A stretch of DNA of 4,955 bases from a virus (taxonomy: Duplodnaviria; Heunggongvirae; Uroviricota; Caudoviricetes). How positions within the stretch are numbered: position 1 is the stretch's first letter; each line of letters starts with the position of its first letter. This document shows positions 1-4,149 of this stretch, in pieces. The stretch lies in IMG/VR virus record IMGVR_UViG_2667527789_000016, one strand, 5' to 3'. The position numbers were made by a program, and so were the translations under genes. The notes beneath the pieces were generated by a model. It made no database searches, was not told the DNA's origin, and worked only from the letters and a program-made list of their open reading frames with translations.

Positions 1-1425
1 GTGGAATTATTCAGATTCACTAAAGTAAAAATTGCAGAACTGCCAACGCCGGAGCATGGGCAGGCCGAATATGGTGATACGGAGGTTAACGGGCTGCGTG
101 TCCGTGTAGGTTCGTCAGGTGTGAAAAGTTTCTGCATTTCCCGTAAGCGTAACGGAAAATTTATTCGTGCAACGCTGGGGCGTTTTCCTGATCTGAGTGT
201 GGACAATGCCAGGGCTAAAGCTATGGAGCTTCTCGGAGAAGTAGCCACAACGGGGATAAATCCGAACACAGCGAAACGCATGAACAACAAGGCCATGATA
301 ACGCTGAGTGAGGCACTTGAAGCCTACATAAAAAATCGTGGCCACCGTCTTAAACCCGCCACAGAAAAACAGTACCGCAGCATATTACAGAATTATTCCG
401 GTGACTGGATGGCGCATACCCTCGCTAGTATTTCCCGCGAACGTGTGGAACAACGGCATAAGGCCATCACTGATGGGGCTGTATGGTTCGGTGCTGATAA
501 AACCACGTTACGGGCTGGTGTTGGTACAGGAAGCAAGGCACAGGCCGATTTATGGGCGCGTGCGCTGCGTGCTGTGTGTCGGTTTGCGCATGATCATTAC
601 CGTGATGATGCGGGTAATACTCTTTTACCGGATCCGCCGACTCTGGTACTGAGCACCAAACGCCAGTGGCACGGAACGGTAAGAAAAACGGAACGTATCC
701 GTCTGCATGATTTTCCCCGTTGGTTTGCTGCTGTAGCTGCTGTACGTGACCAGGGCGAACAGGAAAGGGATGATATAGCGGTTACGGTATGTGATGCCGT
801 GGAAATGGCGCTTTTTACCGGACTGAGAAAATCAGAAATTTTTGGCCTTACGTGGGATCGCGTGAATATGGGCGGTCGTTTTTTCTGGATAGACACCACG
901 AAAAACGGGGATCCGCTCGAATTGCCGATTACTGATACGTTGCGGGAAATGTTCCGCCGCAGGCTGAAAATAAAAAACGCTGATGATGTTCTGGTGTTTC
1001 CTGGTGTGAAGGGAGTGATTCAGGAGACACGGCACATCATAGACCGGATAAGCGCGGCTACCGTTCCAGAGTCGAACGATGAAATGCTCTCCCCTGTACC
1101 ATTCAAATGGCACGATGCGCGCCGGACGTTCGGGACGGTTGCCGAACTGGTGGGCGTGGGTAATTACATCCTCAAGCGCCTGATGAATCACCGCACTATG
1201 CGAAGTGCTGACGTAACGCAGGGGTATTTACATTTTGGTGCTGATGAACTGCTGGAGCCAGCGTCACGGATAGAACGGGCAATTCTGGAGCATGCCGGGC
1301 TGGTGGAGAGTAAAAAATCTATCGATGCGCAATTGCTTTCTGCACTGGAGAGCATGGACGATGATGAAAAACGCCAATTAATTTTCAAAATCATAAACAA
1401 AAATTTAGAGGTATCGTCTAAATGA
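1..1425 (+). CDS. int: Tyrosine site-specific integrase (phage/P4-type, N-terminal arm-binding domain plus catalytic domain); possibly 5'-partial, GTG at position 1
   Basis: 474-aa ORF. The N-terminus (FTKVKIAELP...GLRVRVGSSGVKSF...RATLGRFPDLSVDNARAKA) resembles the arm-type DNA-binding domain of phage integrases. The C-terminal half carries the catalytic signature: R in TGLRKSE, H-x-x-R in KWHDARRTF, and a candidate catalytic Tyr in TQGYLHF. The true start may lie upstream of the window. Confidence 0.9.
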   Translation: MELFRFTKVKIAELPTPEHGQAEYGDTEVNGLRVRVGSSGVKSFCISRKRNGKFIRATLGRFPDLSVDNARAKAMELLGEVATTGINPNTAKRMNNKAMITLSEALEAYIKNRGHRLKPATEKQYRSILQNYSGDWMAHTLASISRERVEQRHKAITDGAVWFGADKTTLRAGVGTGSKAQADLWARALRAVCRFAHDHYRDDAGNTLLPDPPTLVLSTKRQWHGTVRKTERIRLHDFPRWFAAVAAVRDQGEQERDDIAVTVCDAVEMALFTGLRKSEIFGLTWDRVNMGGRFFWIDTTKNGDPLELPITDTLREMFRRRLKIKNADDVLVFPGVKGVIQETRHIIDRISAATVPESNDEMLSPVPFKWHDARRTFGTVAELVGVGNYILKRLMNHRTMRSADVTQGYLHFGADELLEPASRIERAILEHAGLVESKKSIDAQLLSALESMDDDEKRQLIFKIINKNLEVSSK

Positions 1426-2042
1426 AAGTTTGGGATGTAGTAGATGATGATACAAGAATTGAATTATATGATTATCTTGATCAAGTCGAAAAAGAAATGA
1501 GCGAGCATATATATGAATTGAAAGATAAATTTAAATATTATAGAAAAGCCGAAAGGAAAAGAATAGCAGCAAAGATTGATAAGAAAGAATATTTAGCGTT
1601 AGACAAAACAGGGGAGATAAACATAGGTCATAGTGCTAATGTATTTCTGAAATCCATCTTAATACTAGAGCTACTTGGATATAAAAATACTGCTGAGGAT
1701 CTTTCATGGGTATACAAAAGAGCCTGTATAGCCTCAAAAGGTGGTGGCAAAGTTATTAGATTAATATCTGATGGTGTTATCAAAAGAAGAAGAAGTGAAG
1801 CCGCCTCCGGCCCCCGCCACCATTTACATGATGAGATAGTCGCCATCATGAAAGCCACATGGAAGAAAGAACCAGCACTATCCAAAACAAAAATGATTGC
1901 GAAGCTGTCGCGTCGATATGAGGGCCGGATAAGCGAGGAAACAATCAAGTGCTGGATAAAAAGTGAAAAACTAGCCCCGCCGCCACCACCTGACAAAAAG
2001 TACAAAAACACCGAACTGGTGATCCCGCCAGAGTACGCATAA
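1422..2042 (+). CDS. Hypothetical protein, AT-rich cargo gene (206 aa); C-terminal part resembles a short HTH-like segment followed by a PPPPP tract
   Basis: ATG at 1422 overlaps the integrase stop (ATGA, 1422-1425); GAGG at 1408-1411. The first ~380 nt are very AT-rich (about 30% GC by eye) against roughly 50% in flanking genes, then composition returns to GC-normal near 1800. No recognisable family from sequence alone. Confidence 0.6.
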   Translation: MKVWDVVDDDTRIELYDYLDQVEKEMSEHIYELKDKFKYYRKAERKRIAAKIDKKEYLALDKTGEINIGHSANVFLKSILILELLGYKNTAEDLSWVYKRACIASKGGGKVIRLISDGVIKRRRSEAASGPRHHLHDEIVAIMKATWKKEPALSKTKMIAKLSRRYEGRISEETIKCWIKSEKLAPPPPPDKKYKNTELVIPPEYA

Positions 2043-2055
2043 AAAATTTTTTATC

Positions 2056-2086
2056 AGCCAGGGTAAAAGCAGCTATTCCCCTGGCT
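2056..2086. other. Hairpin (8-bp stem AGCCAGGG / CCCTGGCT, 15-nt loop) just downstream of the cargo ORF stop; possible weak terminator
   Basis: Inverted repeat 2056-2063 / 2079-2086. Preceded by AAAAAATTTTTT (2041-2052), which would supply a U-run for minus-strand reading, but there is no strong T-run after it on the plus strand. A direct repeat TTCCCCTGG sits at 2076-2084 and 2095-2103. Confidence 0.25.
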
Positions 2087-2175
2087 TACCTGCTTTCCCC
2101 TGGGAAAATCAGCTTTTCACCTTACCGCCCTCACAGCAAAAACCTAAAGTAGCTCACGGTAACAATAGGTAATAC

Positions 2176-2388
2176 GTGGAGTTACTTGTGAACCTAATCA
2201 ATTCTCAAGAAAAAATGACCCGCAAAGAAGCCGCCGAGCATTTGGGGGTAAGTGTCCAGACTCTTGCTAACTGGGCGCATACTGGCAAGGTAAAAATCCC
2301 TTTCCATAAGCTGGGGCGCAAAGTGCTGTATATGCGCTCTGATCTCGATACTTATCTTGCATCCACTCGCAGAACGCAGACAGCGTAA
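2176..2388 (+). CDS. Small HTH DNA-binding protein of the excisionase/AlpA/Vis type (start may be the in-frame ATG at 2215)
   Basis: The sequence TRKEAAEHLGVSVQTLANWAHTGKVKIPFHKLGRKVLYMRSDLDTYL fits the excisionase-family HTH pattern (helix-turn-helix, then a Gly-Arg wing, then an acidic DxxL motif). It lies immediately downstream of the integrase, as in many integrative elements. GTG 2176 has a weak AGG at 2168-2170; ATG 2215 has no clear SD. Confidence 0.75.
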   Translation: MELLVNLINSQEKMTRKEAAEHLGVSVQTLANWAHTGKVKIPFHKLGRKVLYMRSDLDTYLASTRRTQTA

Positions 2389-2408
2389 GGGGGGAGCGAT
2401 GCACATAA

Positions 2409-2434
2409 CAAAAAGCGCCCCGTTACCGGAGCGC
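2409..2434 (-). other. GC-rich hairpin (GCGCCCCG-TTAC-CGGAGCGC, 7 of 8 bp) with a U-run on the minus strand; terminator-like in minus orientation, possibly also serving the upstream plus-strand gene
   Basis: Stem 2415-2422 / 2427-2434. The plus strand has CAAAAA (2409-2414) before the stem, so the minus-strand RNA has stem followed by UUUUUG. Contains the CGCCCCGTTAC motif repeated at 2891-2923. Confidence 0.35.
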
Positions 2435-2530
2435 CCTTGCGAACAATTAACCTGCTGCGAAAAAATTGGATCAGTGCAGGGGAATTATATCAACTGTGTG
2501 AAGAAGCGCCACAATTGCCGGATAACAGGC

Positions 2531-2558
2531 AAAGAAAAGGCCACCTGTCACGGTGGCC
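2531..2558 (-). terminator. Rho-independent terminator of the minus-strand small gene
   Basis: Stem GGCCACC (2539-2545) / GGTGGCC (2552-2558) with a 6-nt loop. On the minus strand the stem is followed by TTTTCTTT (complement of 2531-2538). It sits about 30 nt downstream of the stop of the 2769..2590 gene. Confidence 0.55.
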
Positions 2559-2589
2559 AATGTGATCAGTGTGGTGGTTTGCTGGTGGA

Positions 2590-2769
2590 TTATTCCGCTT
2601 CTTTGGTCTTGCGGCGCTGGCGGCGTTTTATTTCGCCGCGCATGGCAGTAACGATAAATTGCGCGTCTGTTTCGTTTTCTTCTTTTACCAAATTCATTTC
2701 ACTTAAAACGTCTAGAGGTACTCTAGCTGTTTTTTGTTGTGACTTGTTGTTTGTTGTACCTGTTGGCAT
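2590..2769 (-). CDS. Small basic protein (59 aa), putative DNA-binding regulator of the element (candidate repressor); function unproven
   Basis: ATG (complement of 2767-2769) is preceded by AAGGAG at 8-nt spacing (complement of 2778-2783). Protein is MPTGTTNNKSQQKTARVPLDVLSEMNLVKEENETDAQFIVTAMRGEIKRRQRRKTKEAE with a strongly basic tail. It has its own terminator (2531-2558) and is divergent from the plus-strand operon. The longer 117-aa ORF (to 2943) would run through the operator and hairpin region and is not favoured. Confidence 0.6.
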   Translation of the reverse strand: MPTGTTNNKSQQKTARVPLDVLSEMNLVKEENETDAQFIVTAMRGEIKRRQRRKTKEAE

Positions 2770-2795
2770 CTCTGTTCTCCTTACTGTTAGGTGGT

Positions 2796-2835
2796 GTTCA
2801 GTATACGGAGAAAAAAAAATAAAAAAAGACTTGAA
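2796..2835 (-). promoter_or_regulatory. Candidate promoter for the minus-strand small gene (-10 TATACT, T-rich upstream tract)
   Basis: Minus-strand TATACT (complement of 2800-2805) lies about 30 nt upstream of the ATG. A long T-tract on the minus strand (plus-strand A-run 2809-2827) could act as an UP element. No good -35 hexamer, so this is weak. Confidence 0.3.
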
Positions 2836-2880
2836 GTGCAAGTCACCTAAAAGTAATCTAGATTTCAAGGTGACTTGCAC
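2836..2880. promoter_or_regulatory. Operator-like perfect inverted repeat GTGCAAGTCACC-N21-GGTGACTTGCAC with a perfect palindrome AATCTAGATT in the spacer
   Basis: Arms 2836-2847 and 2869-2880 are exact reverse complements (12/12). The spacer holds a 10-bp perfect palindrome at 2855-2864. It lies in the divergent intergenic region between the small regulator gene and the plus-strand operon. Confidence 0.45.
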
Positions 2881-2883
2881 CAA

Positions 2884-2923
2884 AAAGGCAACGCCCCTTA
2901 CTGTTGGGCCAGTAACGGGGCGT
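2884..2923 (-). other. Long GC hairpin (13-bp stem with one bulge, 6-nt loop) followed by a U-run on the minus strand; terminator-like or leader RNA structure
   Basis: ACGCCCCTTACTG (2891-2903) pairs with CAGTAACGGGGCGT (2910-2923). The plus strand has CAAAAAGGCA before the stem, giving UGCCUUUUUG after the stem on the minus strand. Shares the CGCCCCGTTAC motif with 2415-2434. Confidence 0.35.
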
Positions 2924-2959
2924 CTAACCACAAACGATAGCAATAGTATCGAGGTAGCT

Positions 2960-3166
2960 ATGTTAAATCATATCACACACCCGCAAGGGCGGGACTCACA
3001 CAACCTGAATAAATACATCTGGCGTTTTATCGCCCTGAGCACGGCACAACCGCGCGTAATCCACATCGAGGCCACCAGCGAACAGGAAGCACGCCAGCAA
3101 TCCCCGGCTGGCTGCGTGATGGTATTCGCTGCCCGTATTCGCCAGGAGGTAGGCCATGTGCAATAA
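2960..3166 (+). CDS. Hypothetical small protein (68 aa), first gene of the plus-strand operon
   Basis: ATG 2960 with GAGG at 2951-2954. It is the in-frame tail of the 2357..3166 ORF after excluding the part that overlaps the regulatory region. Its stop overlaps the next gene start by 11 nt. Confidence 0.45.
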   Translation: MLNHITHPQGRDSHNLNKYIWRFIALSTAQPRVIHIEATSEQEARQQSPAGCVMVFAARIRQEVGHVQ

Positions 3167-3395
3167 AACCACACCGGACGCAGCAGCCGCCGCGCTCACT
3201 ACGCTGATGCACGCGCTTATTGATATTTCTGTTATTGCTGACATGGCGCATAAGCACGCCACCAGTGAAACAGAATATGCAGGGGCTTTCGTTCCTCATT
3301 CGCTGGCGGTTATGCAACTTAGTGCTGATATGGCTCTGAATGAGGCCAAAGCTATCCTGATTGCTGATTGTGAAAATGGGGGGGGTTATGCGTGA
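3156..3395 (+). CDS. Hypothetical small protein (79 aa)
   Basis: ATG 3156 preceded by AGGAGG (3144-3149) at 6-nt spacing. Overlaps the upstream and downstream ORFs in a coupled arrangement. Confidence 0.55.
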   Translation: MCNKTTPDAAAAALTTLMHALIDISVIADMAHKHATSETEYAGAFVPHSLAVMQLSADMALNEAKAILIADCENGGGYA

Positions 3396-3849: not shown

Positions 3850-4149
3850 ATGAAACTTAAATATTCTGGCTTAACTGCCAGTGGCAACACTCACCCTAAA
3901 TTTACGCGCGGTGATATTTACCGCGACCAGTACGGCGGCACGGTAATGATTAAGGGCGTGGCGGGACGGTGCGTAACTTACCGCCGTGAAGGTTACGAAT
4001 ATGATTGCGTGATGCCTGTTTATCAGTTCCGGCGTGATTTTTCTCTGGTACAGACCGCGCCGCATAACGTGCCCACCAGCAACGCCAGGGCACGGGCAAA
4101 CATCCAGAAGCTGAAAACCATGATTAACGGATTCAGGGGTAAACAATGA
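3850..4149 (+). CDS. Hypothetical protein (99 aa)
   Basis: ATG 3850 with GGAG at 3836-3839. Its stop overlaps the start of the downstream ATPase gene (ATGA at 4146-4149). Confidence 0.55.
   Translation: MKLKYSGLTASGNTHPKFTRGDIYRDQYGGTVMIKGVAGRCVTYRREGYEYDCVMPVYQFRRDFSLVQTAPHNVPTSNARARANIQKLKTMINGFRGKQ

Follow-up and report, generated by a model that had tools for sequence, protein, structure and literature searches.

Which protein keeps the early operon of a phage satellite silent while the element resides in the chromosome of an enterobacterium? For the phage-inducible chromosomal islands (PICIs) of Gram-negative bacteria it has been called unclear whether such a repressor exists at all, and the difference from their Gram-positive counterparts a mystery (Fillol-Salom et al. 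2018, PMC6092414), and a search of the literature returned no reported repressor of Gram-negative PICIs. The question is raised by the viral record IMGVR_UViG_2667527789_000016 (Caudoviricetes), a stretch of 4955 bp that we analyzed as a whole and refer to as the window. According to the listing of its open reading frames (ORFs) and scans for protein families, the window represents the left half of a PICI-type enterobacterial phage satellite. Between alpA and the replication genes it carries a minus-strand gene for a protein of 59 amino acids (aa) of the YlcI/YnfO family, for which a preliminary description, made from the sequence alone, had proposed the role of a candidate master regulator. 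On the basis of a comparison of related loci and a structure model we argue that the protein is probably a sequence-specific repressor of the rightward promoter located next to its gene, and we put the probability of this reading at roughly 0.7.

Operator-like sites at two divergent promoters

The minus-strand signals listed in the preliminary description, namely the ATG at 2769, the stop at 2590, the AAGGAG, the TATACT with its T-rich tract and the hairpin with T-run at 2558-2531, were all borne out (Table 1). The spacing of TATACT and ATG is rigid: it amounts to exactly 36 nt in 67 of the 76 unique upstream regions of related loci. The TATACT constitutes a good -10 element, a -35 is not recognisable, and leftward transcription would start near 2793. 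A promoter directed at the Icd-like gene is found on the other strand. The position of its -35 is fixed at 29 nt beyond the TATACT (its complement TTCAAG lies at -65 from the ATG), and the hexamer reads TTGAAG in 54/76 and TTGAGG in 12/76 unique loci, with a TAnnnT hexamer at a distance of 17-18 bp in 74/76. Here transcription would start near 2866. The tract between the two back-to-back promoters has kept its A/T-rich character in the related loci.

Around these promoters three copies are placed of an operator-like motif, which has the form of an 11-bp GTG-N5-CAC and is specific for the locus. The sites occupy fixed positions: one abuts the -35 TTGAAG (O2), a second is found immediately beyond the rightward -10 (O1) and the third directly follows the TATACT (O3). 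A 10-mer recurs three times or more, with one mismatch allowed, in 61 of the 74 unique upstream regions of 120 nt, as compared to 1 of 370 dinucleotide-preserving shuffles. In the window O2 and O1 form a perfect 13-bp inverted repeat (2836-2848 / 2868-2880), and at O3 most other subtypes have a near-perfect copy of the motif of their locus. The arms of the inverted repeat at 2836-2880, which had been singled out earlier as a likely target, belong to a set of three operator-like sites that is specific for the subtype and overlaps both promoters. The distal site is inverted in some subtypes and direct in others, and this variable orientation fits a near-symmetric site that is bound by a symmetric dimer. 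When further copies were sought across the window, O1 and O2 were the only strong ones and none was found near int or alpA.

The motif follows the protein

A set of 95 loci encoding relatives of the protein was collected from genome and viral-contig collections, the named sources of which comprise 18 genera, from Escherichia to Photorhabdus. A divergent Icd-like gene, detectable with the protein of the window, is present in 64 of the 95, mostly at a distance of 185-220 bp, and usually has DUF4222 and a gene for either a primase or RepA behind it. The placement of the 59-aa gene against the plus-strand operon, which had been likened to that of satellite and prophage repressors, is therefore a widely kept one. 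The other loci have a different first gene and the same leader sequence, and the conserved tail motif of this leader was recovered in 97 of 98 cases.

The proteins were divided into subtypes on the basis of residues 11-18, in the predicted strand, and at least eight protein-motif pairs were obtained: QQKTARVP with TGACTTGCAC, QMTTVRIP with TGAAATACAC, QL(F/T)TVRVP with TGAAACACAC, QKLQARAP with TGGATTCCA, QQLNARFP with TGAATCGCAC, QKMSARVP with TGGCACCCAC, TQIASRVP with TGCTAACCAC, and QALKARVP, the subtype of the satellite EcCICFT073, with TGTGGCCCAC. Mosaic loci indicate that the centre of the motif tracks the YlcI allele and not the Icd or the AlpA allele. Four YlcI subtypes, each with its own motif, are found beside a single Icd allele (86% or more identity to that of the window), and three motifs occur together with one AlpA allele (at least 93%). 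Conversely, the subtype of the window retains its motif beside Icd alleles of 45-94% identity. Moreover, all three sites of a locus change together despite a spacing of 22-45 bp, and the exchanged block that is visible by BLAST (2588-2935) consists of the 59-aa gene and the intergenic region and encodes no other protein. The slot can also be filled differently: in L002, the closest relative of the left part of the window, the position divergent from the Icd-like gene is taken by another RHH-like protein (ribbon-helix-helix, RHH) of 63 aa (9827-10018, minus strand). It is named a HicB family antitoxin by PGAP, has its own GTACGTAC repeats upstream (GTACGTACGTAAC / GTTACGTACGTAC) and is accompanied by a 58-aa ORF downstream.

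The family and its predicted fold

The 59-aa ORF is a real gene, as judged from its relatives and its codons: it matches NF041551 (NCBIfam YlcI/YnfO; 61.7 bits against a cut-off of 30, E 5.1e-17, residues 9-50 aligned to the whole 42-position model) and PHROG 949 (function unknown), it has 112 homologues in a large protein collection, and synonymous differences from close alleles prevail over non-synonymous ones (10:2, 13:4, 15:4 and 6:2). The latter ratios signify that the gene is under purifying selection. The protein has an isoelectric point of 9.7, and its orthologues in E. coli are annotated by PGAP as YlcI/YnfO family. The family is small, since a collection of 1.84 billion proteins contains 87 clusters of it at 50% identity, and all its named members come from Enterobacterales. 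The exact 59-aa variant is encoded by 9 of 5426 genomes, too few to test the co-residence of elements of the same subtype. A functional study of YlcI, YnfO or DUF3950 was not found in the literature.

An AlphaFold2 model of the monomer, built on an alignment of 44 sequences, has a mean pLDDT of 83 and shows an extended segment (residues 12-18) followed by helix A (19-28) and helix B (35-58). This strand-helix-helix order predicts a fold of the RHH type. In line with the prediction, the weak, sub-threshold matches of distant family members are to RHH families only (RHH_1, PSK_trans_fac and CB_ParB_C), the sole match of the family profile in the PDB is 3no7, likewise RHH and weak at E 0.2, and one source labels a member of the family as CopG-family. 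The earlier suggestion that the protein is possibly ribbon-helix-helix-like thereby gains backing from both the model and the distant matches. The alignment of the family varies at positions 2-6, 12-14 and 17 and on the surface of helix A, and is invariant at N7, K9, S10, R16 and P18 and at almost every position of helix B. The residues that change along with the centre of the motif are those of the N-terminal arm and of the beta-strand. The variable residues of the strand may read the variable centre of the motif, and the invariant residues its GTG/CAC flanks, which would be the pattern of an RHH reader.

A probable repressor of the rightward promoter

The layout of the locus is that of an immunity repressor, as far as can be read from the sequences: a divergent gene with its own promoter and terminator, and repeated, allele-specific sites over the promoters. 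In the repressor reading, the beta-ribbons of dimers would enter the major groove at O2, in the spacer between -35 and -10, and at O1, around +3 to +14. Occupancy of the two sites would occlude RNA polymerase at the rightward promoter, and the division-inhibitor homologue and the replication genes would be kept silent for as long as the satellite stays in the chromosome. Negative autoregulation would be provided by the third site, after the TATACT, in weak form in the element of the window. More speculatively, occupancy of O2 might aid the transcription of the 59-aa gene itself, as is the case for lambda CI at OR2, since O2 lies some 42-53 bp upstream of the putative start of the gene, in front of a promoter that has no -35.

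Relief of the repression could be achieved in two ways. A helper phage might supply an antirepressor. Alternatively, and this is speculation, rightward transcription driven by AlpA might read antisense through the 59-aa gene into the operon, which is possible because both intervening hairpins are terminators on the minus strand only. Over-expression of AlpA alone induces the excision and replication of EcCICFT073 (PMC6092414), and antisense read-through would reconcile this observation with the presence of a repressor.

Several results weigh against the repressor reading. The induction of EcCICFT073 by AlpA alone implies that any such repression can be bypassed. Gene and sites are physically linked, so that co-inheritance alone yields part of the association between protein and motif, which is why the mosaic loci were examined. 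A consensus sigma-70 scan of 2000-3200 called neither of the divergent promoters at its threshold, the rightward -10 of the window is weak (3/6), and O3 is degenerate in this element. With respect to the fold, Pfam-A contains no family that matches the protein at E values up to 1, including DUF3950, the name carried by YlcI of E. coli K-12; sequence searches of the PDB with the protein gave no match, and Foldseek returned nothing significant against PDB and BFVD. An alignment by hhalign reached a probability of 15% with Arc and of less than 1% with Mnt, where the sequences of Arc and Mnt had been entered by hand.

In addition, the word 'master' goes beyond the evidence. The part of the earlier proposal that stands is that of a putative local repressor of one promoter region, because the motif is found nowhere else in the window and its only strong sites are those at the Icd-directed promoter. 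What would be new is the functional assignment, in terms of model and sequence, to a known kind of regulator: a small RHH repressor with its operators. A wider extrapolation is made tentatively, and we hold it to be somewhat less probable than its negation: proteins of the YlcI/YnfO type would be the missing maintenance repressors of the Gram-negative PICIs, EcCICFT073 included, with at least eight operator specificities that define immunity groups of satellites, and helpers would neutralise or bypass the repressor, for instance through antisense read-through driven by AlpA, and not only activate alpA.

Should the assignment be correct, a DUF-type family present in thousands of enterobacterial genomes would gain a function, and a candidate would be available for the repressor that was believed to be missing from Gram-negative PICIs. 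Quiescence and induction of these elements would become directly testable. In addition, at least eight natural repressors of 59-61 residues with matched 11-bp operators would be at hand, both to establish the recognition code of RHH proteins and to serve as compact orthogonal regulators.

Alternative explanations

The alternative that survives best accepts that the protein binds the sites and assigns it another task: that of a Cro- or Arc-like feedback regulator, of a component of a switch, or mainly of an activator of its own promoter, which would act after induction in the timing or shutdown of the early operon and not in maintenance. Both tasks are performed by the RHH proteins of P22 immI, in which Mnt is the maintenance repressor and Arc exerts transient feedback. 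The distance of O2 from the leftward start resembles that of an activator site, the leftward promoter misses a -35, and AlpA is by itself enough to induce EcCICFT073, all of which would suit such a task. Yet the gene forms a unit of its own, from promoter to terminator, and its transcription leads away from the early operon, as it does for Mnt, Stl and CI and not for Arc and Cro. The location of the sites in the spacer and over the +1 of the rightward promoter is the geometry of repression. We therefore consider this alternative rather unlikely.

A somewhat smaller chance is given to the view that the gene is accessory cargo, moron-like or antitoxin-like, and that the repeats are bound by AlpA, the Icd-like protein, the Bro-N protein or a regulator of the helper. 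The motif follows the YlcI allele while Icd and AlpA remain constant, and it remains constant when Icd changes. Moreover, no second protein is encoded in the exchanged block, and the sites are intact in the window even though its Bro-N gene has been reduced to a remnant. As to an antitoxin, the window contains no toxin gene downstream and the terminator comes right after the stop. None of the proteins of the window matches a toxin family, and PADLOC detected no defence family in it, only generic helix-turn-helix (HTH) matches of AlpA. The reading as a type II antitoxin of the RHH kind was consequently rejected for the window, as there is no co-transcribed toxin gene.

The proposal that the inverted repeat acts as a nucleic-acid hairpin (a minus-strand terminator or insulator, or an RNA element), and that the basic protein is no sequence-specific DNA binder, is very improbable and was rejected as a general explanation: its arms are perfectly complementary with a variable spacer and the terminator scan does call a minus-strand hairpin with T-run at 2844-2828, but the largest subtypes have at those positions direct repeats, which are unable to pair, and still have the T-tract, the promoter of the gene itself has a third copy at a distance of 45 bp, and the predicted fold is RHH.

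Relation to known systems

The most direct comparison is with the satellite EcCICFT073, the model PICI of Gram-negative bacteria, which we recognised by its genes for capsid (c1499) and decoration (c1500) proteins. In this element a YlcI/YnfO gene, C_RS30120 (9474-9653 of locus L102, equivalent to NC_004431.1 1380473-1380652), is divergent from an Icd-like gene (C_RS30125), and there are two GGTGTGGCCCAC sites and TGTCCCCCAC after the TATACT. The locus tags of both genes are out of series with those of their neighbours, which suggests that C_RS30120 was added at re-annotation. The interval has been described before as a dynamic Bro zone with immunity RNAs (Mageeney et al. 2023).

The leftward unit differs between satellites. 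In the window the 59-aa gene is followed, from 32 nt past its stop codon, by the terminator hairpin GGCCACC-GTGACA-GGTGGCC, which has a 7-bp GC stem and is succeeded by TTTTCTTT, and there is no further minus-strand ORF downstream. In EcCICFT073 a 57-aa ORF (C_RS30800) is situated between the YlcI gene and the terminator, so that a two-gene unit ends in the same hairpin as that at 2558-2531, and similar relatives likewise have a second small ORF at this place. The one-gene unit is therefore specific to the element of the window.

In Stl and Rpr, the master repressors of the Gram-positive PICIs (SaPIs), position and logic are the same, that is a repressor divergent from the excision and replication operon (PMC6092414). 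Stl and Rpr are however larger HTH proteins, unrelated to the 59-aa protein in sequence and fold, and in the present case int and alpA are located on the other side, co-directional with the operon presumed to be repressed. Moreover, their derepression by helper-phage proteins is proven, whereas a repressor role of the 59-aa protein is deduced from comparison. The three operators of lambda CI (OR1-OR3) are shared by back-to-back promoters, two on the lytic side and one on the promoter of CI itself, and its immunity specificity varies between relatives, as appears to be the case here. Nevertheless, CI has an HTH fold, where the 59-aa protein is predicted to be RHH, is four times larger and is cleaved with the aid of RecA for induction.

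With respect to the predicted fold, P22 Mnt is an RHH protein whose gene is divergent from the operon that it represses. Arc and Mnt each have one operator of 21 bp that is bound by a tetramer, in contrast to the three separate 11-bp sites, direct or inverted, observed here, and neither has a detectable profile relationship to the 59-aa protein. Omega of pSM19035 and the plasmid regulators of the CopG type are among the closest working analogues as RHH repressors. They differ in type of element and in the genes regulated, and omega binds contiguous 7-bp heptads, not 11-bp sites at a distance of 22-45 bp. The K-12 proteins YlcI (prophage DLP12) and YnfO (Qin) belong to the same NF041551 family and are small prophage-borne proteins of unknown function. 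The sequence of YlcI also reads as RHH (IRFPNQMIEQ...), but ylcI is located beside cos and nohD of the lambdoid prophage DLP12 and is devoid of the three-site geometry. A tblastn search of 50,697 phage records returned nothing that matches the satellite clade proper (59-61 aa, NNKSQ...FIVTA..GEIKRRQRR).

The leader of the Icd-like operon

The sequence between the rightward promoter and the Icd-like gene folds into two hairpins, and the tail between them is invariant: it reads UCUAACCAC in the window and in the relatives L005-L099. The fold is supported by covariation, as 14 of the 16 pairs change on both sides and 89% of the cells are paired, a result that was equalled by none of 500 shuffles. 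The leader matches no Rfam family. C4 (RF01695) and isrK were not matched, neither in 2380-3000 at E values up to 10 nor in the whole window at E values up to 1, and the same searches returned sub-threshold, terminator-like matches only. In phage P1 the c4 RNA is encoded directly upstream of icd, and by analogy the leader may be a processed RNA of the c4/CI type or an element of translational control.

Two complementarities were observed between this region and the remnant that follows alpA. Positions 2416-2429 (plus strand) can pair with 2909-2922 of the leader hairpin in 13 of 14 positions, and 2432-2441 (plus strand) with 2982-2991, a hairpin inside the Icd-like coding sequence, in 10 of 10. 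The former is by eye not kept in the leader of EcCICFT073 and may be due to chance or be specific to the subtype.

The element and its other features

The features of the window are collected in Table 1. Its integrase, alpA and replication module are co-directional, and in close relatives in E. coli chromosomes these are followed by genes for SSB, capsid/protease and TerS, so that the relatives supply the morphogenesis genes and the whole conforms to a Gram-negative PICI. The element is a mosaic, as a single place in a complete E. coli genome accounts for at most 65% of the window and phage records gave no match to it.

Table 1. Positions of genes, signals and sites in the window
Feature	Position	Strand	Basis or remark
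Tyrosine integrase	1-1425	+	ORF listing, family scans
206-aa ORF	1422-2042	+	Start overlaps integrase stop
AlpA/excisionase-type HTH_17 protein	2176-2388	+	Family scans
Remnant MHITKSAPLPERPCEQL...	2398-2569	+	C-terminal end of a longer plus-strand ORF, unannotated in EcCICFT073
Intrinsic terminator GGCCACCGTGACAGGTGGCC + TTTTCTTT	2531-2558	-	Terminator scan, fold as drawn
59-aa protein, YlcI/YnfO family (MPTGTTNNKSQQKTARVPLDVLSEMNLVKEENETDAQFIVTAMRGEIKRRQRRKTKEAE)	2590-2769	-	ORF listing, NF041551; ATG 2769-2767, TAA 2592-2590
Shine-Dalgarno AAGGAG	2777-2782	-	7 nt 5' of the ATG, read from the sequence
O3 position CTGAACACCACC	2790-2801	-	Directly after the gene's own -10; TGA...CAC flanks kept, centre differs
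-10 TATACT of the 59-aa gene's own promoter	2800-2805	-	T-rich tract upstream
A/T tract between the back-to-back promoters	2806-2830		T-rich 5' of the ylcI -10, A-rich (UP-like) 5' of the Icd-directed -35
-35 TTGAAG of the Icd-directed (rightward) promoter	2831-2836	+	Fixed position
O2 GTGCAAGTCACCT (reverse complement AGGTGACTTGCAC)	2836-2848		Perfect inverted-repeat arm; in the spacer of the rightward promoter, abuts -35
-10 TAATCT of the rightward promoter	2854-2859	+	17 bp from -35
O1 AGGTGACTTGCAC	2868-2880		Perfect inverted-repeat arm; about +3 to +14 of the putative rightward transcript
Structured leader	2892-2951	+	Hairpin 2892-2922, conserved tail TCTAACCAC, second hairpin 2935-2951 just before the Icd-like Shine-Dalgarno
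Icd-like gene	2960-3166	+	NF033153 E 6e-20; synteny across loci; first gene of the operon proposed as repressed
Three small ORFs	between Icd-like gene and DUF4222		ORF listing
DUF4222	3850-4149	+	Pfam; synteny across loci
RepA/AAA_25 helicase	from 4146, runs off window end	+	Pfam AAA_25; synteny

The 206-aa ORF that overlaps the end of the integrase gene has a GC content of 38.5%, against approximately 50% in its neighbours. A confident family was not assigned to it: the best match, HTH_32 at E 0.0013, is below the cut-off, and PADLOC gave none. It may represent accessory cargo of the satellite.

At the position where an intact Bro-N gene of 192 aa is present in satellites that encode the identical 59-aa protein, the window has the remnant only, the equivalent of which in L002 is labelled by PGAP as a partial Icd-like pseudogene. 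Two terminator-like hairpins lie within the remnant, between alpA and the 59-aa gene (2438-2405 and 2558-2531), both with T-runs on the minus strand only. A plus-strand frame of 269 codons (2357-3166) is open across the antisense of the 59-aa gene and runs in frame into the Icd-like coding sequence; PGAP annotates no such gene in the relatives, and the frame is probably an artefact of the open antisense frame.

Finally, the same 59-aa protein is found in a different setting in the loci L103-L107. These encode a different integrase of 413 aa, have the intact Bro-N gene between alpA and the 59-aa gene and adjoin truncated prophage genes for portal, gpW and terminase, and they resemble the helper-embedded PICIs (Mageeney et al. 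2023). The first divergent gene of L107 is not Icd-like but belongs to the Ash family.

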